Shown: positions 13,073-27,041 of the stretch, piece after piece | Layout: each line of letters starts with the position of its first letter | Numbering within the stretch: the first letter of the stretch is position 1 | Assembly (NCBI GenBank): GCA_963718915.1 | Contig: CAVRAI010000013.1 | Location: 150,001-182,000 of the forward strand | Direction: 5' to 3' | DNA length: 32,000 nt | From: an uncultured Chloroflexia bacterium | GTDB lineage: Bacteria; Chloroflexota; Ktedonobacteria; Ktedonobacterales; JADMIN01 | Program-made: the position numbers and the translations under genes | Notes under the pieces: model-generated | The model's input: only the letters and a program-made list of their open reading frames with translations | What the model was told of the DNA's origin: nothing | The model's database searches: none

Positions 13073-14558
13073 GGCGCACCGCCTCACGCGCCTCTTCTCC
13101 CCCGGTCGGTGTCACGAGAGCGCCGTCGGACAGGCGTACGAGCTTATCGCGCGACCCCTCGGCCGCTTCATCCGAGAGGGCGAGCGCCAGGGCGGGCAGC
13201 GTAACAAAGTAGAAGTAGGTTGTGAGGCTGCGCCATGCGAACCACAGCGGCGTCACCGCAAGCACAAATCCGAGACCCGTGCTGGGTCGCGGCTGGCGCC
13301 AGTAGACGATAAGACAGGCGCCGATTACCAGCACCTCTAGCGCGAGGTAGACGGGCGCGGGAGCCAACGGCAGTACACCCGCGAGCGAGAGGCGGACCAG
13401 ACCATTGCCGAGCGGGAACATCGGGTCGATCTGCGGCGCGAGCACGCCACGCGCCCACGCAGCAGGGTTGTTTACGACGAACGGCGCATTGATAATCGCA
13501 AAGACTGCCACACCGCCCACCAACCGCCGTACCGCCGCGCGCGCGCCAGAGCGACGCCAGACAAGCAGGAGATAGAACGGCGCGAAGAACCATGCCAGTT
13601 GCTTCGCGGCGAGCGCCAGCCCGAACGCCACGGTTGAGACCACAGGGCGACGCCACCAGCGCCAGGCAATGAATAACAGCAGGATGTAGAAGACGTCCAG
13701 GTCGCCGACCAGCGCCGCGTTGAGGAGTGGCGTATCGGCCAGCACAAGCAGCGCCAACCATACCCTGCAGTCAGGTGGTACCGAGCGTATCATCAGGATC
13801 GCCAGCGTCAGCAGGCAGAGCGCGAAAAAGAGCACGACACTCGGCAGCCCTGCCCAGACGAACGGCGCCAGGGGCAAAAAGGCCAGCGCAGGATAGCTGA
13901 CACGCGACTCGAACGCGCTCACGGCGTCGGGGTTGCCAACCGGCTGCTGGGCAAACACGGCCCGCAGCTCATCTTTCGACGGATAATCCGTCGGCGGTGT
14001 GCTGGCGAACGCGCCCTGCCGGAGCGGCGTAATGTTCGCGGGGTCTTGGTGGAGTGCGCGCATCGCTGCCACGATATCGGACGTGACGTAGGGGTTATGC
14101 CCGTCGAGCAGTTGCTGCGCCGCGTAGTGGTCGAGCGTGGTGCCGTCGTTGGCGTATTGGGGTGAGGAGAAGCTGGCGACGATAACCCTGGCGCTCTGGA
14201 AGATGCCCAGCGGCGCGACGAGCAATGTCAGGCAGAGGGCGGCAATCTGAACCTGGCGCCGATAGGGCCAGCGCCAGCGCGGCGGATTGACGCCCACAGC
14301 GGCCAACAGCAGCACGAGCGAGGCGGCCAGCGTGAGAAAGACGAGGATCCCGGTCAGGGTCGCGCCCAGCGCATGGGTGACGGGGTCGCGTGGTAGTTCC
14401 AGGAGATTCTGAAGCGCCAGCGCCAGTGCGACCAGCGTCAGACGCGCCGCGGTAGTCTGCCGGGGAACGACAATCCATTGTCGCGCCCAGCGGGCGAACG
14501 CGCCTGACTCGGTTGCCGCTCCCATCGACTCGGGCTGAGTACCCATGGGTTTACCCAT
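13065..14558 (-). CDS. GT-C-fold membrane glycosyltransferase (DUF2029/GT87-like)
   Basis: 497-aa polytopic ORF. It has a periplasmic-loop segment LLDGHNPYVTSDI ... SYPALAFLPLAPF, and later TM helices resemble GT87-type proteins. Its stop overlaps the start of the giant GT-C gene by 8 nt, suggesting translational coupling. Confidence 0.75.
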   Translation of the reverse strand: MGKPMGTQPESMGAATESGAFARWARQWIVVPRQTTAARLTLVALALALQNLLELPRDPVTHALGATLTGILVFLTLAASLVLLLAAVGVNPPRWRWPYRRQVQIAALCLTLLVAPLGIFQSARVIVASFSSPQYANDGTTLDHYAAQQLLDGHNPYVTSDIVAAMRALHQDPANITPLRQGAFASTPPTDYPSKDELRAVFAQQPVGNPDAVSAFESRVSYPALAFLPLAPFVWAGLPSVVLFFALCLLTLAILMIRSVPPDCRVWLALLVLADTPLLNAALVGDLDVFYILLLFIAWRWWRRPVVSTVAFGLALAAKQLAWFFAPFYLLLVWRRSGARAAVRRLVGGVAVFAIINAPFVVNNPAAWARGVLAPQIDPMFPLGNGLVRLSLAGVLPLAPAPVYLALEVLVIGACLIVYWRQPRPSTGLGFVLAVTPLWFAWRSLTTYFYFVTLPALALALSDEAAEGSRDKLVRLSDGALVTPTGGEEAREAVRHE

Positions 14559-14576
14559 AGTGGTGCAAACTCGGTC

Positions 14577-14960
14577 GCCCGCACGGGCTACGCTTGACAG
14601 ATGAACGCTTACCTGCTATACCAGCCTCATGCGCACGGGCGATGAACCCGTGTTTGGTGGCTTTCGGGCCAGTGCTCTTGGCACAATCGAATGTTCGTGG
14701 CGTTGCCGGGAGGAAGCCGTCCCGGTGTAAAACATTCACGGTTGCATCCCCCTTCCACGTATCTGGGAGCCTTAGCCCCCAGTAGTTCCGGTGGACACCC
14801 GGCAAGTAGCTCGGTGGAGTTCGCTCCGCCGAGAAGCCCCTAGCTTCAGCCGTGGGGAGTGTCACAGAGGTCGTCGTGCTCATGCCTTCTCCCGGCGCCT
14901 GGTCTGCCCGCCTCATCATGAGAGACCGTACGAAACTGCGCCGACTGCAACCAGCCATGG
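14577..14960. ncRNA. Candidate structured RNA / long 5' leader of the GT-C operon (unclassified; strand unresolved, most simply the minus-strand leader)
   Basis: This is the core of a 538-bp gap (14559-15096) without a convincing CDS. Local helices seen:
- 14810-14833: 10 bp with a tetraloop
- 14788-14802: CCGG/CCGG
- 14766-14781: GGGAGC/GCCCCC
- 14706-14725: CCGGGA/TCCCGG
- 14630-14648: CACGGG/CCCGTG
- 14671-14683: GTGC/GCAC
- 14577-14588
- GAATGTT (14689-14695) pairs with AACATTC (14731-14737), while the enclosed CGTGG (14696-14700) can pair with CCACG (14755-14759) outside it, which is pseudoknot-like. Confidence 0.35.
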
Positions 14961-15096
14961 CGACATCTGAGGCCAGCCACGGCCGCGAAGCTCACACAGT
15001 GATGACGCCTACTATAACGCCTCTACGCGATCAATCGTTCCTGAGTATCCACATCCAGTACTTCGTGATAGTGACGAGCGCTGCGAACTGTCTGAC

Positions 15097-15282
15097 TCAG
15101 GGCGCCTGGCGAAACGGCAGCATAATAATCGCGCCAAACGCCGCTACTGCTGGCACCGCATAGAGCAGCGCCTGGATGACATCATCCCGCGAGTTCGCGT
15201 GCAGAAACATCGTGAAGCTGGCAACGGCAAACCCCACACCGATTGCAAAGAGCAGAATGGTGCTGAGCATTCGCTTCGACAT
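15097..15282 (-). CDS. Small two-TM membrane protein (61 aa), unknown function
   Basis: MSKRMLSTILLFAIGVGFAVASFTMFLHANSRDDVIQALLYAVPAVAAFGAIIMLPFRQAP has two clear hydrophobic helices. A GAGAAGG Shine-Dalgarno-like element precedes the ATG at 15282. The longer ORF-track version adds an implausible N-terminus. Confidence 0.45.
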   Translation of the reverse strand: MSKRMLSTILLFAIGVGFAVASFTMFLHANSRDDVIQALLYAVPAVAAFGAIIMLPFRQAP

Positions 15283-15461
15283 GATCGCCTTCTCTACCTG
15301 CTGTATATATGAATCTTCCGAATATTCCCACAACAGTGGCCATATGCGCCGCCAGATTATACCATGTCTGCGGTTATGCGCACCATGCGCTATGACCAGA
15401 AAGTTGCCCAAACAGCTGGCGTGTCATTCCCAAAACACCCCCGCGCCCGTTATCGTCTTGT

Positions 15462-16095: not shown

Positions 16096-16137
16096 CCGTA
16101 GCATAAATGCTACGGCGAATTACCCGGATCATTCGCC
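16096..16137. promoter_or_regulatory. Two adjacent inverted repeats between the lipoprotein and dehydrogenase genes (terminator-like or operator)
   Basis: CCGTAGCATAAATGCTACGG (16096-16115) is a perfect 20-bp palindrome. It is followed immediately by GGCGAAT-N10-ATTCGCC (16114-16137). There is no U-tract after either. Confidence 0.3.
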
Positions 16138-16217
16138 GGCAGGCTCACAACGGTAAACTTCCCTCCAACATACTGTTCCAAAACGACATCAGAATCATTC
16201 AATTCATGGAGCGACAT

Positions 16218-17210
16218 ATGGAGAATCCCCAACTCGTCGTCAGCAACTTTACCTTCGCGCCAGACGATCAGCGGCGGATGGAGGAGGCGCTCGGCGCGGG
16301 TGCGTTGCTGCTGGTTCGTGGCGGACGTGACGCGCTACGCGAGGCGCTGGTGGCGCACCCCAAGGCCGATGTCGTCGCCAGCTTCTTCCCGCCCGCCGAC
16401 CTGCTCGCGCTAGCGCCCCATCTCAGGTGGATCGCGCTGCCCAGCGCGGGTGCGGACCATGCGATCCGGGCGGGCACCGTGCAGCCGGGCGGGCCGGTGG
16501 TAACCACCGCCAGCGGCATCCACGCGGCGCCCATCGGGGAGTTTGTGCTCTCGCTGATGCTGATGTGGGTGCGCCACTGGCCTCAGATCATCGACTATCA
16601 GCGCGACGCGACCTGGCCCGATGCGGCGGGACGCGAGCAGCTACACGGGCGCGAGCTGGACGGCGCGACGCTTGGCGTCATCGGTCTGGGCGCGATTGGG
16701 CGGCGCATCGCCCGGCTGGGTCACGCCTTCGGCATGCATATCGTCGCCACGCGGCGCAGCGCCAGCGCGGGGGCGAGCGACCCCGACGCCGATCTGCTGA
16801 TCCCGCCGGAGCGGCTGGGCGACCTGCTCGCAGCATCGGACTTTGTCGTCGTGAGTGTGCCTGCGACACAGCAGACGCGGCATCTGCTCGGCGCGAACGA
16901 GCTACGCATGATGCGGCGCGATGCCTTTCTGATCAACATCTCGCGGGGCAGCGCGATTGATGAGGCGGCGCTGATCGCAGCCCTGACGAATGGCATCATC
17001 GGCGGCGCAGGGCTGGATGTCTTCGAGACGGAGCCGCTGCCTGCCGAGAGTCCGCTCTGGCGGCTGCCCAACGTGATTCTCTCACCCCATGTGGCGGGCA
17101 ACACCGACCAGTACAGCCGCCGCTTCACCGACCTCTTCCTGGAGAATCTGGCGCGGTACCGTGCGGGCGAGCCACTACGCAACGTGGTGGATCTGGCACG
17201 GGGATATTAG
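16218..17210 (+). CDS. D-isomer-specific 2-hydroxyacid dehydrogenase family, NAD-binding (glyoxylate/hydroxypyruvate reductase or PGDH-like)
   Basis: Rossmann motif GVIGLGAIGRRIARLG. Catalytic region FLINISRGSAIDEAALIAAL ... GAGLDVFETEPLP ... ILSPHVAGNT (Arg/Glu/His triad context). The start is set at ATG 16218 (MENPQLVV), with GGAG 6 nt upstream. Confidence 0.9.
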   Translation: MENPQLVVSNFTFAPDDQRRMEEALGAGALLLVRGGRDALREALVAHPKADVVASFFPPADLLALAPHLRWIALPSAGADHAIRAGTVQPGGPVVTTASGIHAAPIGEFVLSLMLMWVRHWPQIIDYQRDATWPDAAGREQLHGRELDGATLGVIGLGAIGRRIARLGHAFGMHIVATRRSASAGASDPDADLLIPPERLGDLLAASDFVVVSVPATQQTRHLLGANELRMMRRDAFLINISRGSAIDEAALIAALTNGIIGGAGLDVFETEPLPAESPLWRLPNVILSPHVAGNTDQYSRRFTDLFLENLARYRAGEPLRNVVDLARGY

Positions 17211-17218
17211 GCGGCCGG

Positions 17219-17255
17219 ACCTCTCCCCCTACCCCCTCCCCGACACGGGGAGGGG
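17219..17255 (-). repeat. REP-like G/C hairpin element, copy 1
   Basis: ACCTCTCCCCCTACCCCCTCCCCGACACGGGGAGGGG has a 10-bp stem CCCCTCCCCG/CGGGGAGGGG with a 3-nt loop. The tail on the minus strand, GGGGGTAGGGGGAGAGGT, is shared with 25755-25777. Confidence 0.8.
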
Positions 17256-17296: not shown

Positions 17297-18648
17297 CTAC
17301 CCTCGCCGCCGGGTGAGATACAGCTCGACCCAGGCGTCGGTGGCGCGCGAACGGCCCAGCGCGGTATGCAGCACGTAACGGGTGGCGTCTAGCGCATGGT
17401 CGTACTGCTTCAAGGGCAGCTCGGAGACCTCAGCCCCGGACCTCACCCCCAGCCCCTCTCCCGCGAGGAGAGGGGAGCCAGATGTCGTACTCACGTCAGG
17501 GGGATACTGGTACATGCCATATTCGGCGATGGTGTGGACGCAGCGCGGGGCGACGTAGAGGCCGCGTGTGCCGTCACTGCGGCGGCCCAACAGGCGGGTG
17601 ATGGTCTGGATGCCGGGACGCACCGCGTCCTCGGCGGGCAGGGCGCGAGATGGATAAGCCCAGCGCGGACAAGCGCGGTTTGCAGCGCGGCGATGTGCTC
17701 TGGCTCGTCGGGGCCGCAGTACCACGTCTCGACACCATAGCGCTGCGTCAGGTCCACCAATGCGGGCAGGACGACGGCATCGAGCGGGGCGCGCCGTTCG
17801 TACCACTCGTCGAGTTGCCAGGCGCGGTCGTCGCCATCGAGGCCGAAGATGCAGGCGGCGGTGGGGTTGGTGTAGCCCCAGTCCACCCCGCCGATGACGC
17901 GGGCATAGCGCTTCCCATCATCAGCCTCACGGATATGGCCATCGGTGGCGTCGGTGGCGAAGGCGTAGACCAGCCCCTCGAAGGCGGTGAAGAGGCCGAG
18001 CACCTCCTGGTCGTAGAGCGCGCCCGATAAGCCGAGGTCTTCGATGTAGTCGCCGGGCAGATGGGCGGCGTTGGCGCTGGTGGCGGCGCGGTAGAGCGCG
18101 TGGCTGGGCCGCGGATGCAGCTCGAAGTCGCGGGCGAAGCCGTCGCGGCCCTTGGGCGTGCCGGTGGCCCAGCCTGCCGTCTCGTAGCCTTGTTGCCGCA
18201 GTCGCGCCTTGAGCATCTGCCAGGCGTAGTAGCCACAAAGCGGCGCCTCATCCAGCCAGAACCAGGCGAGGTTGAGGCCGCGCACGCGGTCGGGTTGGTC
18301 GAGCGAGCGGAAGAGGATCTCGCTGCCGTTCTCCAGCCGCAGATGCCCTTCGACCTTGTGAAAGGTGTACTTCATCTCTTCAGGCAGCAGTGAGAAGAAG
18401 GTGCGCTGGGTGGCGTCGCGCAGCATCGGGTAGGTGGGCGCGCCGATGAGGCCGAGCGAGCCGGGCTGGTCAAGGGCGTAGGCGAGGGCGCGCAGGGCGC
18501 CAGCGGTGGTCTTGCCCGCGCCAACGCCACCGACGTAGAAGCTGAACCGCGCCTCGCTCGCCAGGAACGCCTGCTGCGCCGGGTTGAGCGTCCAGTCGGC
18601 GAGGATGGCGGCGGAGGTGCATAAAGGCTCGGATGTATTCTTTGGCAT
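17297..18648 (-). pseudogene. terL: Phage terminase large subunit, disrupted by a frameshift near 17640-17700 and carrying a REP-like insert
   Basis: The N-terminal ATPase has Walker A FYVGGVGAGKTT (about 18508-18534) and Walker B-like LAWFWLDEA. The nuclease-domain continuation (YPSRALPAEDAVRPGIQTI ... KQYDHALDATRYVLH) is in a different frame (ORF 17297-17806). The start at 18648 has a GGAG Shine-Dalgarno. Confidence 0.8.
17438..17482 (-). repeat. REP-like G/C hairpin element, copy 2 (inside the terL 3' fragment, in-frame)
   Basis: GGACCTCACCCCCAGCCCCTCTCCCGCGAGGAGAGGGGAGCCAGA has a 9-bp stem CCCCTCTCC/GGAGAGGGG. It is translated within the terL frame as SGSPLLAGEGLGVRS. Confidence 0.8.
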
Positions 18649-18775: not shown

Positions 18776-19869
18776 TGGCAGAACAGTTGCGCGTCTTCGT
18801 CAGCCATAGCCACCAGGACAACGCCTTCTGCCAGCAGATCGTGCAGGCGCTGCGCGACGCGGGCGCGGATGTCTGGTATGACGAGCACAACCTGCGGCTG
18901 GGGCGTAGCTCACGAGATGATTCAGCGTGAGTTGGGCGCCGCCCGGTCTTTGTGTTGATTCTCTCGCAAGGCCGTCGTTGGCCTCGCAATGGGTGAAGCG
19001 CGAGACGGCTGGGCCTACGAGCTCTACGGCCGCGAACCGACGCGGCTGATGGTCTTTGTGACAGCCGGGCAGATTGAGCGCGCCGACTTCGGCACGGAGA
19101 CAGGCTGGCTGCTTCTTGCAGGACTTCAAGCGTATCGAGGCCCCGGCTCGCAACCTTATCCGCCTGCATGAGGCGGCTCGCCGTCTGCGTGCTGCACCTT
19201 GGCCTGACTCCGCTGGCGAGACGCCCGCCCCCGTCGCGCCGCAGCCGACGCGAGACTGTGGACGACCTGCTGACGCGCGGCAAGGCGCTGATGGCACAGA
19301 AGAAGTATGCCGAGGCGCTGCCGCTATTCGAGCGCGCTACCCAACTCGCTCCTGGTCGTTCGACGCTTGGGTGCCATCAGTCTCGCTTACGACGAATCGT
19401 GGACGCTATGAGGAGGCGCTGACTGTTATGAAGCGAGTCGGCGGCTATCGACCCGACCGACGCCAGACTTGGTTTAGCCTTGGCGCAGTGCTGCCTTACG
19501 CAATGGCGCTACGGACTCGCCCTGGCCGCCGATGAGCGTGCGCTGGCACTCGACCCGAACAATGCCAGAACCTGGTTCAACAAGGGCGCCGCGCTGCGCA
19601 AACTGCTGCGTTTCAAGGAGGCGTCGCTGCCTCCGACCAGGCGATGGCGCTGCCCCGAACGACGCTGAGGCTTGGTCAACAAGGGCATACGCTCGTCGAC
19701 TGAGGCGTCTTGCCGAGGCGCTGGTCGCCTATGAGAGAGGCGCTGGCCCTTGTCCCTGACTACGCTATGGCCTGGCATAACAAGGCAATCACATTGCGCA
19801 ATCGTTGGGCGGACGGCCGAGGCGGAGGCGGCGGAGCAGCACGCGGACGAGTTGCGCGCGAAGGGATAG
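18776..19869 (+). pseudogene. TIR-domain + tetratricopeptide-repeat protein, multiply frameshifted
   Basis: Frame A begins MAEQLRVFVSHSHQDNAFCQQIVQALRDAGADVWYDEHNL, a TIR_2-type start. Recognisable continuation pieces are scattered over all three plus frames:
- HEMIQRELGAAR
- PVFVLILSQ
- ASQWVKRE
- WAYELYGREPTRL
- TPR units: GKALMAQKKYAEALPLFERATQLAP, GRYEEALTV, ALALDPNNARTWFNKGAALRKLLRFKEA, APNDAEAW, ALALVPDYAMAWHNKAITL
The reading ends at TAG 19867-19869. Confidence 0.7.
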
Positions 19870-19877
19870 CGCCGCGC

Positions 19878-22334
19878 TCATGGCTGTGCCCCCTGCCCAT
19901 CTTGTCCCGCGTCGCCTCCTGGCTCACTTGGCTCGTCCTCTCCCTCAGGTTTTGGCTGGAAGCACTCCACGCAGAGCAGCCGCCCCTGCGCGTTGCGGAA
20001 CGTGGCATAAACATGCGCCCCGCCGGTGAACCGACACACCGACGAAGAAGACGCGGATGGAGATGATGGAGATGGCCGTGTGTGTACGGAGAGGGGAGCG
20101 CCATGCTCGCCAAGAAGCTCATTGGATGCCAAGTTGCTCATATTCCCAGCATGAGCTTCTTGGGCAGGATGAGCTTCTTGGGGCGGCAGATACCAGAGCC
20201 AGCTGCCCGCGTAACTCGCCTTCTTTGAGAGGATGTCGCAACGAGCGCGCGCCCGTCTCAACGTTGCTAGGCTCACCCCATGCTCTTGCGCATAGGCCTG
20301 GACGGCTGGCTCGGGCTGCGGGCCATCGGCCAGGAATGCCCTCAGCAGTTCCGCCGCGCGTGTCAGCGCTGGCTCTGTGGGAGCCGACACTTCCTCCTGA
20401 AGCAGCGCCCGCGCATCATACGGACTCTCGCCCTCCCAAGCAATGATGGGCGCGCCACTGGGTGACCCGACCACCCGATATGCCAGGGACGTTGGCGACA
20501 TGCCAAGGTTGTTCTTGGTGCTGGCGACTACCCGCCGCTCCGGGTTGTCAGGGTCGCACCCTACCAGCAGCCCCGACCGCGCCGCCCCGATGATGCCAAT
20601 GGAGCCGCCGCCCCGATAGAGCGCATGTCCACCCCCACCTTTATTGAGATGGCGAATAAGAAAGAAGGCGGCGCCAGTGCGCTCCGCCAGCCGGGCCAGC
20701 GGGGCCAGTACCCCACGCACATCCTGATCGCGGAAGGAATTGGTCTGGCTGTCCAGATATGCCATGAAGGGATCGAAGATGACCAGTTTGGCCTCCACCC
20801 GTTCGATGGCCCGCTCGATGAGCGTCAGGTCGCGGAAGCTGGGCTGGTGCTCGATGGGCGCGCCGTCCAGTGGGGTGAGTCTCACCGTCGTCACCACGAG
20901 GAGCCGGTCCGGGTCGCCGCCCGCCGCATCCAGCCGTGGGCGCAGCGTATCGGCGGGGTCGTCCTCGGCGGTGAAGTAAACCACGCCCGCCGGGCCGATA
21001 CCGGGGCTGCCGTCTGGCATCTCGTGTCCCGCGGTGATGCGCGCCGCCAGGTCGAGCGCGAGCAGCGTCTTGCCGTGCCCAGGGTCGCCGTCACAGATGG
21101 TCAGCTTGCCTTGATAGAGCCGCCCGCCCCAGATGGGACGCACCGGTGTCGGCGTTACCTCGGCCAGAAGTTGCCCAATCTGCTCGATCCGCCCAAGAGG
21201 CTCATCGTGCGCCAAGAAGCTCATGCTGTGGATATGAGCCTCTTGGTGAGCTTCTTGGACGTAGGCGCTGCCAAGTCCCCCCGACCTGCCCGAACTATCC
21301 TCAGACCGGCCCAGACCCAGCCAGACGACCAGCCGTGAGACAATGCGCACCCCATCAGCGCCATGACCCGAGAGTCGCGCCGCCAGGGACTTCCCACCCG
21401 TCACCGGGCTCCCCTCGGCCAGCTTGCGCGCCGTGCCACGCGCCTTCGCGCGCTGCTGCCACTCCTCATCGCCCGCGATCCGCGCCACCAGTCGAGTAAA
21501 GTGGTCCACCTCCTCCTCAGCCCAGCCGCCGCGCACGAGCAGCCCGGCGAGGTCTTTGGCCGCCTCATCGCGCTGGCCTTCGTCCGGCCAGTGCCGCGCC
21601 ACGAGCGCCACCGCCGCCACCCGCGCCACCGCCGCCCGCAACTCGCGCGCAGGCGCCACGCTCGGCTCGCCCTGGGTGCTGCTGATGCTGCCACGTTCCC
21701 AGCGCACCACCTCCCCGCTCGGATGCACCGAGGGCGGCACGACCGTCTGCCCGCCAGTTGACCGCAGCTCGATGAGCATGGTGGTGTGGTGGGCGGACCC
21801 CTCCCGGCGCTGCGCGCCACCCTCCCCGACACGGGGAGGGGAGCCAGAGCCGCCCATCCGCGCGAACGGTTCGGACATATCTGGTAGCCCCTCTCCCCGT
21901 GGGGGAGGGGTTGGGGAGGGGTCCGCGTACTTCGTCGTCGCGGGAAGCTCACCGACCACCCGATACCAGTAGTGGCTGGCCGGATTGCTCGCCCGTCCTG
22001 AGATCATCCCCGTCGGCGGCAGCAGCTGCTCCGCCGCTTCCCGTGCCTCGGGCGCGTCGCAGTCCACATCCACCAGCCCACCGCTCGGCTCCCCCAGCAG
22101 CACCCCGATGTTGTGATGCAATCCCCCGCCACCGCGCCCGCCAATCGGCCCGAACCATTTGGGCAGCTCGTCTTCGTCCAGGCGCATCGCCTGCCAGCCG
22201 GTCAGCGCCACCCCCTTCTGCCCCGGAATCACCGGCACCACCCGCCAGCCACGCCGGGTATAGTCTCGCGCCGCCGCCAACGCGACGTTCTCCGGCTCCT
22301 TCTGCTGCTCGTGCGCATCATGAGAGGCCGTCAT
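19878..22334 (-). CDS. Bifunctional PrimPol-type primase/polymerase + RepA/AAA_25-type helicase, with C-terminal wHTH-like and Cys-rich tail
   Basis: - The N-terminus DYTRRGWRVVPVIPGQKG..., LVDVDCD and VVPPSVHPSGE are PrimPol motifs.
- The central LTICDGDPGHGKTLLALDLAA (Walker A, about 21067-21090), LVIFDPFMAYL (Walker B) and FFLIRHLNK are AAA_25/RepA-like.
- The start at ATG 22334 has a perfect AGGAGG 6 nt upstream.
- The reading frame stays open despite the internal repeat insertions. Confidence 0.85.
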   Translation of the reverse strand: MTASHDAHEQQKEPENVALAAARDYTRRGWRVVPVIPGQKGVALTGWQAMRLDEDELPKWFGPIGGRGGGGLHHNIGVLLGEPSGGLVDVDCDAPEAREAAEQLLPPTGMISGRASNPASHYWYRVVGELPATTKYADPSPTPPPRGEGLPDMSEPFARMGGSGSPPRVGEGGAQRREGSAHHTTMLIELRSTGGQTVVPPSVHPSGEVVRWERGSISSTQGEPSVAPARELRAAVARVAAVALVARHWPDEGQRDEAAKDLAGLLVRGGWAEEEVDHFTRLVARIAGDEEWQQRAKARGTARKLAEGSPVTGGKSLAARLSGHGADGVRIVSRLVVWLGLGRSEDSSGRSGGLGSAYVQEAHQEAHIHSMSFLAHDEPLGRIEQIGQLLAEVTPTPVRPIWGGRLYQGKLTICDGDPGHGKTLLALDLAARITAGHEMPDGSPGIGPAGVVYFTAEDDPADTLRPRLDAAGGDPDRLLVVTTVRLTPLDGAPIEHQPSFRDLTLIERAIERVEAKLVIFDPFMAYLDSQTNSFRDQDVRGVLAPLARLAERTGAAFFLIRHLNKGGGGHALYRGGGSIGIIGAARSGLLVGCDPDNPERRVVASTKNNLGMSPTSLAYRVVGSPSGAPIIAWEGESPYDARALLQEEVSAPTEPALTRAAELLRAFLADGPQPEPAVQAYAQEHGVSLATLRRARARCDILSKKASYAGSWLWYLPPQEAHPAQEAHAGNMSNLASNELLGEHGAPLSVHTRPSPSSPSASSSSVCRFTGGAHVYATFRNAQGRLLCVECFQPKPEGEDEPSEPGGDAGQDGQGAQP
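20110..20181. repeat. 13-mer palindrome cluster A inside the PrimPol-helicase gene (2 direct + 2 inverted copies)
   Basis: CCAAGAAGCTCAT (20110-20122), CCAAGTTGCTCAT (20129-20141), ATGAGCTTCTTGG (20151-20163), ATGAGCTTCTTGG (20169-20181). Confidence 0.85.
21194..21259. repeat. 13-mer palindrome cluster B inside the PrimPol-helicase gene (same motif and same arrangement)
   Basis: CCAAGAGGCTCAT (21194-21206), CCAAGAAGCTCAT (21213-21225), ATGAGCCTCTTGG (21235-21247), TGAGCTTCTTGG (21248-21259). Confidence 0.85.
21817..21851 (-). repeat. REP-like G/C hairpin element, copy 3a (inside the PrimPol domain, in-frame)
   Basis: CCACCCTCCCCGACACGGGGAGGGGAGCCAGAGCC has the stem CCCTCCCCG/CGGGGAGGG. It is translated in the gene frame as GSGSPPRVGEGG. 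Confidence 0.75.
21884..21927 (+). repeat. REP-like G/C hairpin element, copy 3b (inside the PrimPol domain, in-frame, opposite orientation to 3a)
   Basis: GTAGCCCCTCTCCCCGTGGGGGAGGGGTTGGGGAGGGGTCCGCG. It is translated in the gene frame as DPSPTPPPRGEGLP. Confidence 0.75.
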
Positions 22335-22758
22335 CGTCCGCCTCCTGGTTCCCCTGGCTCTCTTCCTTGTCCATCGCGCCATCCGTCGCCTGCGCCTGGG
22401 AGACGGCGCGATCCCATGCGACGAAGCGCAGCAGACGTTGCACGCTCAGCACCGGGATCTGCATCTTCCAGAACGTCTCCGTGAGGCCGAAGCTCGTGTA
22501 CCGTGTGATTGGCCGCCCGTCACGCCGCAGATGCTCTGGGTCAGATACCATCTTCGGCTCCGGCCCCCACGCCACCGGGTTCTGGCACGCCTGGTAGGTG
22601 TCTAGCGCCAGCCCCGTTGCCACGCGCACGACCTCCTGGCCCGCCTCGGTCAACTCCTGGCGCATCTTTACCCGCAGCGCCTCCGCGCCCATCCGCCGCG
22701 CCTGTTCCGCCCACTCCGCCCATTCGTCCCACTGCCACGGCTCCCCGTCCCTGTCCAT
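22318..22758 (-). CDS. Hypothetical island protein (146 aa), first gene of the PrimPol-helicase operon
   Basis: ATG 22758 is preceded by AAGGAG at 6-nt spacing. The protein MDRDGEPWQWDEWAEWAEQARRMG... has an acidic/Trp-rich N-terminus and no family I recognise. Its stop overlaps the PrimPol start by 17 nt. The ORF-track 5' extension is made of REP sequence. Confidence 0.55.
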   Translation of the reverse strand: MDRDGEPWQWDEWAEWAEQARRMGAEALRVKMRQELTEAGQEVVRVATGLALDTYQACQNPVAWGPEPKMVSDPEHLRRDGRPITRYTSFGLTETFWKMQIPVLSVQRLLRFVAWDRAVSQAQATDGAMDKEESQGNQEADDDGLS

Positions 22759-22800
22759 CTCCGTCTCCTTCACCCCATCCTTCTCCGCACCGCCTGGGAA

Positions 22801-22848
22801 GAACCTCACTCCCAGTCCCTCTCCTCGTAGGAGAGGGGAGCCAGAGCC
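22801..22848 (-). repeat. REP-like G/C hairpin element, copy 4a
   Basis: GAACCTCACTCCCAGTCCCTCTCCTCGTAGGAGAGGGGAGCCAGAGCC. Confidence 0.8.
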
Positions 22849-22876
22849 TTCGCCATCCGGCACGATGGCCGCCTTT

Positions 22877-22925
22877 GCCCTCCCCGCGTCGGGGAGGGTG
22901 GCCGAAGGCCGGGAGGGGGCCGCCC
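22877..22925. repeat. REP-like G/C hairpin element, copy 4b (CCCTCCCCG-CGT-CGGGGAGGG subtype)
   Basis: 9-bp stem at 22878-22886 / 22890-22898. It is followed by the GGCCGAAGGCC mini-hairpin and GGGAGGGGGCC. Confidence 0.7.
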
Positions 22926-22927
22926 AC

Positions 22928-22975
22928 AAAAAACGGCGCCCACTACCCGCGCGAAACGGGATAGCGTGGCGCCGT
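22928..22975 (-). terminator. Rho-independent terminator closing the fad operon
   Basis: The minus strand reads CGGCGCCACGCTATCCCGTTTCGCGCGGGTAGTGGGCGCCG followed by TTTTTT. This is a GC-rich outer stem of about 9 bp, an inner 4-bp stem and a U6 tract. Confidence 0.7.
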
Positions 22976-23182
22976 ATTCGGGCTCACCAGCTCTTCAAGA
23001 CTTCAACGATGCATCAATGCTCAATACATCAATGCGCCTGTGACGCTGAGTGTAGAACGCGCGTTTCAAGTGTGCAAGGACGACAAGTAAGGAAGATCAC
23101 ACCCGCTTTCCCCAACCCGCGCAGGCGGGTTTTGTGGCGGAGCGCAGCGAGGCCCTTCAGGCGCGGTTTTAACCGCCAGCCC

Positions 23183-26997: not shown

Positions 26998-27041
26998 TCT
27001 GGCTCCCCCTCTCCCACTAGGAGAGGGTCTGGGGGTGAGGT
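26998..27041 (+). repeat. REP-like G/C hairpin element, copy 6 (between the thioesterase gene and fadA)
   Basis: TCTGGCTCCCCCTCTCCCACTAGGAGAGGGTCTGGGGGTGAGGT. Confidence 0.85.

Follow-up and report, generated by a model that had tools for sequence, protein, structure and literature searches.

Repeat clusters inside a PrimPol-helicase gene of a Ktedonobacterales bacterium are candidate origin iterons matched to the winged helix of the encoded protein

The placing of iterons at or near the gene of their own initiator is already known for mobile-element replication. In phage P4, the alpha protein is a primase-helicase composed of a Toprim primase and a superfamily 3 (SF3) helicase, and its C-terminal winged helix reads the same short repeat in ori and in crr; both sites are needed in cis, and they lie about 4.5 kb apart, not both inside the alpha open reading frame (ORF). 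In phage lambda, the origin iterons are found inside the gene of the initiator O itself, where they are translated as an interdomain region, and among lambdoid phages they co-vary with the O DNA-binding domain. Lambda O is neither helicase nor primase, its DNA-binding domain is N-terminal, and its origin is one cluster of four tandem inverted-repeat iterons with a clear AT-rich region. Here we describe a locus in a window of 32,000 nucleotides from an uncultured Chloroflexia bacterium of the Ktedonobacterales (contig CAVRAI010000013.1, positions 150,001 to 182,000). An ORF at 19878..22382 on the minus strand encodes an 834-residue protein consisting of PrimPol, helical, RepA-like (AAA_25) helicase, winged-helix, and Zn-ribbon-like parts, and this ORF contains two clusters of a 13-mer, CCAAGAAGCTCAT. 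As judged from sequence comparison, the clusters are very probably cognate binding sites (iterons) for the winged helix of the same protein, and, with somewhat less confidence, they are likely to serve together as the origin from which a small mobile element replicates.

Three further systems with published origins resemble this locus in part. In the account of PMC7581432, which cites Ubeda 2007, the Rep protein of Staphylococcus aureus pathogenicity islands (SaPIs) is an initiator-helicase that loads itself and, through its C-terminal domain, binds iterons placed immediately after rep; the repeats are element specific, and a primase is encoded alongside or fused. SaPI Rep helicases are of the DUF927 or D5/Primase_Cterm type, whereas that of the window is AAA_25/RepA-like, and the SaPI ori is a single, intergenic, untranslated locus, whereas the window has two clusters 1 kb apart. 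In the Amycolatopsis integrative element pMEA300, the purified initiator RepAM, described as unrelated to known Rep proteins, binds multiple identical 8-bp direct and inverted repeats, which are capable of forming a hairpin and are located within the coding sequence of RepAM itself, at its 3′ end (PMC2440964). We liken pMEA300 to the window by its repeat layout, but it has one cluster and not two, and its pC194-like nick site suggests rolling-circle replication (PMC2440964). The PrimPol-helicase-winged helix protein ORF904 of the Sulfolobus plasmid pRN1 needs a stem-loop or palindrome of about 100 bp 3′ of its gene, the form of which is conserved among relatives while the sequence is not (PMC4234260). 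The window has the same elements, namely PrimPol, helicase, winged helix, and a palindromic cluster 3′ of the winged-helix coding region; however, pRN1 uses an SF3 helicase and an intergenic, stem-dependent origin, in contrast to the RecA-fold helicase and repeated units found here. Two separated clusters of the same repeat, present in the window locus (W) and also in its relatives L001, L086, L087, and L088 (L numbers denote related DNA loci, and P numbers denote homologous proteins), are reminiscent of P4, yet the window protein combines Prim-Pol (archaeo-eukaryotic primase) with AAA_25 and not Toprim with an SF3 (D5-type) helicase. Because its helicase is RecA-fold and RepA-like rather than SF3, the window protein stands outside the P4 and pRN1 families. 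No account of origins in the PrimPol/AAA_25/winged helix-turn-helix (wHTH) family turned up in a full-text literature search with related terms. This locus differs from the known systems in that both clusters are translated, that they bracket the helicase-wHTH block, and that a recognition rule is readable from natural variation.

The PrimPol-helicase gene contains eight copies of CCAAGAAGCTCAT with zero to two mismatches (four exact, three with one mismatch, and one with two), all of them in the two clusters. Cluster A, on the downstream side of the gene, spans 20110-20181 with copies at 20110 (+, 0 mismatches), 20129 (+, 2), 20151 (-, 0), and 20169 (-, 0); cluster B, on the upstream side, spans 21193-21258 with copies at 21193 (+, 1), 21212 (+, 0), 21234 (-, 1), and 21246 (-, 1). 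The clusters are separated by 1.08 kb. In each, a pair of direct copies with a spacing of 19 bp precedes a pair of inverted copies, whose spacing is 18 bp in cluster A but 12 bp in cluster B. A scan of the window allowing up to two mismatches gave 10 matches, compared with 0.66 expected from shuffles, and 0 of 100 shuffles reached ten. The mismatch-tolerant scan and the shuffles confirm the eight clustered copies and the two-direct, two-inverted architecture proposed in the first-pass annotation of this DNA. Its statement that the motif occurs only in this gene holds for both clusters, with the restriction that only four copies are exact and that two matches at chance level, with two mismatches each, lie elsewhere in the window (26813 and 29622); likewise, its limits for cluster A stand, whereas cluster B had been placed one position off, at 21194-21259. 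The argument from a compensatory A>G/T>C pair in cluster B does not hold, since the variant with G is found in arms 1 and 3, and these two do not mirror each other about the palindrome centre. Local GC minima coincide with the clusters, at 0.51 for cluster A (the minimum of the gene) and 0.56 for cluster B, against about 0.68 for the gene.

In the encoded protein, Pfam locates Prim-Pol at aa 38-238 (2e-19) and AAA_25 at aa 408-583 (3e-31). An AlphaFold model built on 19 homologs (mean predicted local distance difference test [pLDDT] score of 69) has a helical domain at aa 245-355 and a RecA-fold helicase at aa 416-653. The P-loop core of the latter (20634..21161, minus strand; Walker A motif GDPGHGK) is bracketed by the two clusters. 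The fold of the modelled helicase is nearest to that of hexameric RSF1010 RepA (template modelling score, 0.67-0.69), with RadA and RecA also near; a sequence search of the PDB gave no match, and the fold search gave generic RecA-fold helicases only. The wHTH (aa 670-731; 20190..20375, minus strand; limits from AlphaFold secondary structure) consists of helices at 670-684, 691-700, and 705-714 and strands at 718-721 and 728-731, and its recognition helix is L705-R714, inside the motif GVSLA706-T-L-R709-R-A-R. The tail carries a Zn-ribbon-like motif, C-x4-H-x15-C-x2-C (aa 783-807; 19962..20036, minus strand), on short strands predicted at aa 781-804; this tail is probably a small zinc-binding module.

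Cluster B encodes YVQEAHQEAHIHSMSFLAHDEPLG (aa 376-397), within the linker that joins the helical domain to the helicase ahead of AAA_25, and cluster A encodes PPQEAHPAQEAHAGNMSNLASNELLG (about aa 733-758), within the linker that joins the winged helix to the Zn-ribbon-like tail. These are the in-frame translations originally quoted, and the original placing of the clusters before the helicase domain and after the wHTH agrees with the Pfam and AlphaFold domain limits. The pLDDT score is below 50 in aa 147-209, 360-403, and 736-779, of which aa 360-403 and 736-779 are the stretches encoded at clusters B and A; in the model, the repeat-encoded stretches thus appear as disordered linkers, which would tolerate repeats. 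The tail motif, C..TGG.H.Y......GR..C..C, is in frame in P0003, P0004, P0006, P0007, P0008, P0011, P0017, and P0122, and this conservation past cluster A indicates that translation really continues through the cluster. In most PrimPol-bearing relatives, C.FTGG.H.Y......GR..C.EC is encoded beyond the downstream cluster.

Given that both clusters are translated, the repeats might reflect protein-level selection for a QEAH peptide in two flexible linkers. QEAH is encoded four times, the ORF is intact, and homologs retain the linkers. However, the CCAAGAAGCTCAT word is translated from both strands and in two frames, giving the unrelated MSFL and DEPL/NELL besides QEAH, and the repeat is therefore a feature of the DNA and not a peptide repeat. 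Furthermore, aligned homologs have no conserved residues in the linkers although the linkers themselves are retained, the linkers are predicted to be disordered, and the cluster is untranslated in short relatives. We give this explanation next to no probability, and the frame and strand pattern by itself refutes it.

The protein database contains 745 homologs, the nearest of which come from Ktedonobacterales-type metagenome genomes. In the protein alignment, the two linkers of one homolog have words in common, and these words differ from homolog to homolog (TTKLVQP and LDKF in P0004, PDLPSC and DHEG in P0020, IGAH in P0011, and SYGQ in P0008); the number of 3-mers in common between linkers is 1.37 for self comparisons versus 0.30 for cross comparisons (permutation p = 0.0002). 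Homologs that kept the same amino acids while losing the palindrome through synonymous changes had been named at the outset as the finding that would speak for protein-level constraint; instead, homologs replace the repeat wholesale. In the DNA of close relatives, the two-direct, two-inverted architecture recurs at both places, built from repeats of unrelated sequence, namely CCAAACTTGTCCAAC in L001, CGAAGGCCGCCAA in L086, CCGAAGGGGGCCAG in L087, and CCATAGGCGCTCA in L088, compared with CCAAGAAGCTCAT in W. In these five loci, a direct pair 18-21 bp apart is followed by a spacer of 8-15 bp and an inverted pair. The spacers between units are neither complementary nor equal in length, which argues that selection acts on the units and not on a continuous stem. 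The upstream linker has two direct AEGGQ units in P0002 and one in P0122, although these proteins are at least 90% identical, indicating that repeat arrays gain and lose units quickly.

A natural swap is seen in the closest relative of W, L087, which encodes P0002. The DNA of the two loci is 80-98% identical through the helical and helicase domains, yet the identity drops to 0.33 exactly over cluster B (21257-21213), with flanks of 0.8-0.9, and to 0.40-0.53 over the winged helix and all that follows it. At the protein level, the helicases of W and P0002 are 87% identical and the winged helices 44%. In both clusters, CCAAGAAGCTCA of W is replaced by CCGAAGGGGGCCA in L087, and in P0122, a full-length protein near-identical to P0002, both new linkers (EGGQ, VAPFA) are read in frame into the Zn-ribbon. 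In this comparison, change in the winged helix goes together with change in both clusters, as in a single unit.

The position of the cluster is conserved far beyond these close relatives. About 120 related loci were compared, and across the family a repeat cluster is located 900-1050 nt past the Walker A codon; cluster A of W is at +911 to +985 nt. The metagenome set comprised 66 loci anchored on the Walker A codon (GDPGHGK in W), consisting of metagenome relatives of the helicase domain, contigs of named homologs, and W, and the repeat score was the number of copies of the best 10-mer, with at most one mismatch and on both strands, in the region +850..+1250 nt. The mean was 4.8 copies in this region, whereas two other regions of the same genes, taken as controls, had means of 2.7 and 2.9 (Wilcoxon test, 2e-8 and 6e-7), and four or more copies were found in 42 of the 66 loci, compared with 6 and 14 in the controls. 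An independent set of viral contigs gave 22 of 51, compared with 4 and 3 in the controls (p about 4e-5). The repeat sequence differs at almost every locus, whereas the layout is usually two direct copies and then two inverted ones, with direct copies only in L007, L029, L057, and L063. When aligned on their ends, the locus-specific motifs have the common frame C-S-A-A-G-R-N-K-S-Y-C-A.

The relation of the cluster to the ORF varies. In short members of the family (L006, L007, L017, L077, and L078), whose ORF ends at about +930, the cluster straddles or follows the stop codon, and a Streptomyces plasmid has direct and inverted repeats right after the stop codon of its module gene; in W, L001, L009, L040, L094, and L096, the cluster is inside the ORF. 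L094 (Rubrobacter) and L096 are more distant PrimPol-helicases in integrase-bearing elements, and they have the downstream cluster only, read in frame within the stretch that links the winged helix to the Zn-ribbon. In small plasmids, the helicase-wHTH module is the only replication-type gene in the stretch examined. A search for the upstream cluster with the motif of each locus as defined downstream found it only in W, L001, L087, L088, L008, and L023, to which L086 was added by eye; more distant homologs have a short linker at this site. As the upstream cluster is confined to few loci, the downstream cluster is taken to be ancestral and the upstream one a derived duplicate of a subclade. The question raised earlier, whether the linkers are lineage-specific insertions, is answered in the affirmative for the upstream linker only, as the downstream one is an ancestral feature of the family.

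Which part of the protein goes with the repeat was determined in 29 loci with clear motifs, using a 21-residue helix-turn-helix (HTH) segment. Iteron distance is correlated with HTH distance when the helicase core is controlled for (partial Mantel r = 0.32, p = 0.0002), and the correlations with the helicase core (r = 0.01) and with the helices preceding the HTH (r = -0.02) are close to zero. Immediately ahead of the recognition helix, at the position of A706, 16 loci have Arg or Lys, and in all 16 the iteron ends in ...CCA; the other 13 loci have a different residue there, and in all 13 the iteron ends in ...TCA or ...GCA. This rule applies to all 29 curated loci, to about 12 further metagenome loci, and to 12 of the 14 assessable viral loci. 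At the variable position of TL-x-RA, Asp goes with CGCCA, Glu with CCGCCA (except in L117, which has CGCCA), and Trp with TGCC(C)A. Within these comparisons, the repeats co-vary with the recognition helix of the adjacent winged helix and not with the helicase core. Four loci (L029, L046, L057, and L063) have the same helicase with a different, MarR-like C-terminal DNA-binding domain (…SVRLTLSRMYEAREI…), and they carry tandem direct GATACAAGT units at the same place, about +900 to +1000 nt; the swap of the C-terminal domain is therefore accompanied by a swap of the repeat class.

These comparisons bear on another explanation, in which the clusters are a miniature inverted-repeat transposable element (MITE) or a repetitive extragenic palindromic (REP)-like element inserted in frame twice. 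Each cluster is an imperfect palindrome of about 70 bp that folds well as a single strand (z = -4.1 and -2.7 against shuffles), and another REP-like hairpin family (GGGGAGGGG) is truly dispersed in the window, with one pair in frame in the PrimPol domain. Against insertion, no copy of a cluster exists outside the gene in the 32 kb, and the 13-mer pattern has no exact match in 2.9 million viral contigs, where no close relative of the whole protein was found either. In 185,579 reference genomes (one per GTDB species; source genome not included), the palindromic 13-mer pair has four unrelated matches: a terminator hairpin in a Gemmataceae genome, a coding coincidence in Pseudacidovorax, and one Dehalococcoidia intergenic region in two metagenome-assembled genomes (MAGs). 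Dispersal, which the first-pass annotation had proposed checking, is thus absent from the window, the viral contigs, and these reference genomes. In addition, homologs hold a cluster at the same two positions with a locus-specific sequence that co-varies and switches with the HTH, which independent insertions cannot explain. We regard an inserted element as highly improbable, and the conserved position and HTH-matched sequence come close to refuting the second miniature palindromic family once suggested.

The folding of the clusters could also point to other roles, in which the palindromes act as mRNA hairpins, as a hairpin for primase initiation on single strands, or as crossover points for a helicase-wHTH cassette. 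The folds are better than those of shuffles, the pRN1 origin depends on the integrity of its stem (PMC4234260), and the protein is a mosaic with breakpoints at the two linkers. On the other hand, the unequal, noncomplementary spacers interrupt any stem, and the predicted fold of cluster B pairs arm 2 with arm 4, its arms not being mirror-symmetric; some relatives, as noted, have direct copies only. Rfam gave no match, the island that holds the gene has no recombinase, and most of the family has one cluster and not a flanking pair. Above all, the co-variation with the recognition helix would be left unexplained, and a structural or recombinational role is improbable, though less so than an inserted element.

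The mosaic nature of the protein is seen in its uneven similarity to homologs. The PrimPol domain is 81-88% identical to those of P0003 and P0005, whose helicases are only 50% identical to that of the window protein; the helicase is 87% identical to that of P0002 and 70% to that of P0009; the PrimPol domain of P0009 is 58% identical; and the winged helix is 27-44% identical to everything. The breakpoints coincide with the two repeat-encoded linkers.

The conserved position, the HTH-matched sequence, and the joint switch of wHTH and clusters argue for cognate sites and not for dispersed palindromes or a protein repeat. The original proposal, in which the gene contains iterons and a possible origin recognised by the wHTH that it encodes, is supported by the conserved position, the frame, the co-variation, and the L087 switch, while the step from iterons to origin is one that we infer. 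The window locus has three of the features expected of an iteron-type origin: three to four or more element-specific copies, a location within the gene, and a repeat that appears matched to the HTH. The 834-residue protein is presumed to be the initiator that reads the repeats. In the mechanism that we propose, the winged helix of each subunit would dock on one site of 12-13 bp, and neighbouring direct copies, mostly 18-21 bp apart (12 bp in one pair of cluster B), would lie about two helical turns from each other. Two direct and two inverted sites would bring subunits head-to-head and nucleate two facing RepA-like hexamers, the helicase would open the locally GC-poor DNA, and the N-terminal PrimPol domain would lay the first primers. 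The downstream cluster would be the ancestral site, translated here as a disordered linker because a Zn-ribbon-like tail is encoded beyond it, and the upstream cluster, the derived copy, may be a further site of loading, or it may be auxiliary and loop to the first, as crr does in P4.

Sites bound by the protein's own wHTH need not be an origin, and the clusters could instead serve as operators or roadblocks, where protein bound within the transcribed region would reduce expression of the helicase and tail, or in copy-number control by handcuffing, with replication starting elsewhere. All of the evidence for cognate binding applies equally to this explanation; the upstream cluster sits mid-transcript, an AT-rich unwinding element is not seen, and an in-gene site invites transcription interference, an idea also raised for the in-gene site of RepAM (PMC2440964). 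However, where the cluster lies past the stop codon, as in the short members and the Streptomyces plasmid, it would be unable to block transcription of its own gene, and the promoter region (22383-23180) contains no CCAAGAAGCTCAT copy. Moreover, two direct and two inverted sites spaced by about two turns form the layout of helicase-loading origins, and the 5-6 kb island shows no further repeat-rich stretch that would be a candidate origin. A purely regulatory role is unlikely, although it is the least improbable of the alternatives considered here.

Several observations weigh against the origin, or against the cognate sites themselves. No distinct AT-rich unwinding tract adjoins either cluster, and only the dips in GC content are found there. 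Physical binding, assembly of a double hexamer, opening of the DNA, primer synthesis, and the function of the upstream cluster are inferences. The co-variation statistics ignore kinship, and the consensus motifs were oriented by hand; the viral loci L113 and L114 are exceptions to the Arg/Lys rule; and the absence of the source genome from the reference genomes scanned leaves some room for an inserted element. Distant relatives, namely three small plasmids or circles and most viral loci below about 32% identity, have no cluster at +900. A Subdoligranulum plasmid and a 4-kb faecal circle are without it, while pATHE01 and the Microbacterium phage Fregley, in which the Walker A anchor was not found, are outside this comparison; the feature is therefore confined to a subfamily with a helicase identity of about 33% or more. 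In L086 (10001-12406) and L088 (10001-12670), the gene stands alone among housekeeping genes with both clusters intact, a setting that would be odd if the replicon were active. Finally, the element in the window may be decaying, though the gene and the eight sites are intact, and because the island looks decayed, the origin may no longer fire here.

A bolder reading, which we consider tentative and rather doubtful, is that the gene is a self-contained replicon with its own two-part origin in the ORF, in which the segment from cluster B through the helicase and the wHTH to cluster A is a mobile specificity cassette that moves between PrimPol backbones. An origin inside the initiator ORF would make initiator and origin inseparable by recombination, and such a replicon would explain the solitary L086 and L088 genes, the breakpoints at the linkers, and the concerted switch of wHTH and clusters.

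If the iteron-origin interpretation is true, origins would be locatable 900-1050 nt past the Walker A codon in a large family of uncharacterised replicons with PrimPol/Toprim RepA-like helicases, whose members are found in Chloroflexota and Actinomycetota as well as in many contigs of metagenomic or viral origin. The recognition rule, in which Arg or Lys before the recognition helix corresponds to C at iteron position -3, and Asp or Glu two residues further corresponds to CGCCA or CCGCCA, could predict incompatibility groups and allow the design of orthogonal replicons. DNA-binding arrays carried in an ORF as disordered linkers would also impose a constraint of which neither gene finders nor models of linker evolution take account. 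In addition, a compact module of gene plus origin would be a practical start for vectors in Chloroflexota, where replicating vectors are scarce.

The gene lies in an island of 5-6 kb that is flanked on one side by a gene for a 2-hydroxyacid dehydrogenase (16107-17210) and on the other by an operon for fatty-acid oxidation (from 23183). Neither integrase nor tRNA was found in the window, and a promoter and terminator scan gave nothing relevant. A TerL-like gene (Terminase_6N; 17491-18648, minus strand) matches its relatives in two frames and is thus frameshifted, either as a pseudogene or through an error of assembly. In L001 (2865-4223), L095 (16496-18145), and L087 (about 13850-15400), too, the PrimPol-helicase gene is followed by a TerL-like gene; a PrimPol-helicase and TerL pair without integrase is an unusual minimal element. 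Between the PrimPol-helicase and TerL-like genes of the window, tetratricopeptide-repeat matches in two frames (19168-19668, plus strand) look like a degraded gene inserted where L001 has no spacer. The solitary genes of L086 and L088, from two Ktedonobacterales MAGs, have as neighbours a D-Ala-D-Ala ligase and an HD hydrolase (L086) and a carbonic anhydrase and an unknown gene (L088), and no integrase, terminase, or other mobile-element gene was found within 10 kb of either.

The dispersed hairpin family consists of CCCCTCCCC-N4-GGGGAGGGG and variants, about 22-40 nt each and mostly intergenic, at 17234, 17454, 21820, 21886, 22817, 22878, 25609, 27004, and 27550. One inverted hairpin pair (21817-21914) is an in-frame insertion in the PrimPol domain, where it encodes aa 147-209, one of the stretches of low pLDDT; the DNA identity between W and L087 is 0.11-0.33 at this pair, and homologs have similar PLPRGEGEPE peptides at the same spot of PrimPol. 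Direct repeats of 43 nt at 17440-17482 and 22803-22845, which are 86% identical, bracket the island, with an inverted third copy at 27006-27041; they could be remnants of attachment sites or two copies of the dispersed hairpin. The Dehalococcoidia matches to the 13-mer pair (L083, 2540-2690; L085, 4530-4680) lie in a conserved intergenic region that separates a gene for an amidohydrolase from one for a luciferase-like monooxygenase. This region, which is unrelated to the PrimPol gene and may have a regulatory function, contains several CTTGGTC/GACCAAG repeats after a CCAAGAAGCTCA/TGAGCTTCTTGG hairpin.

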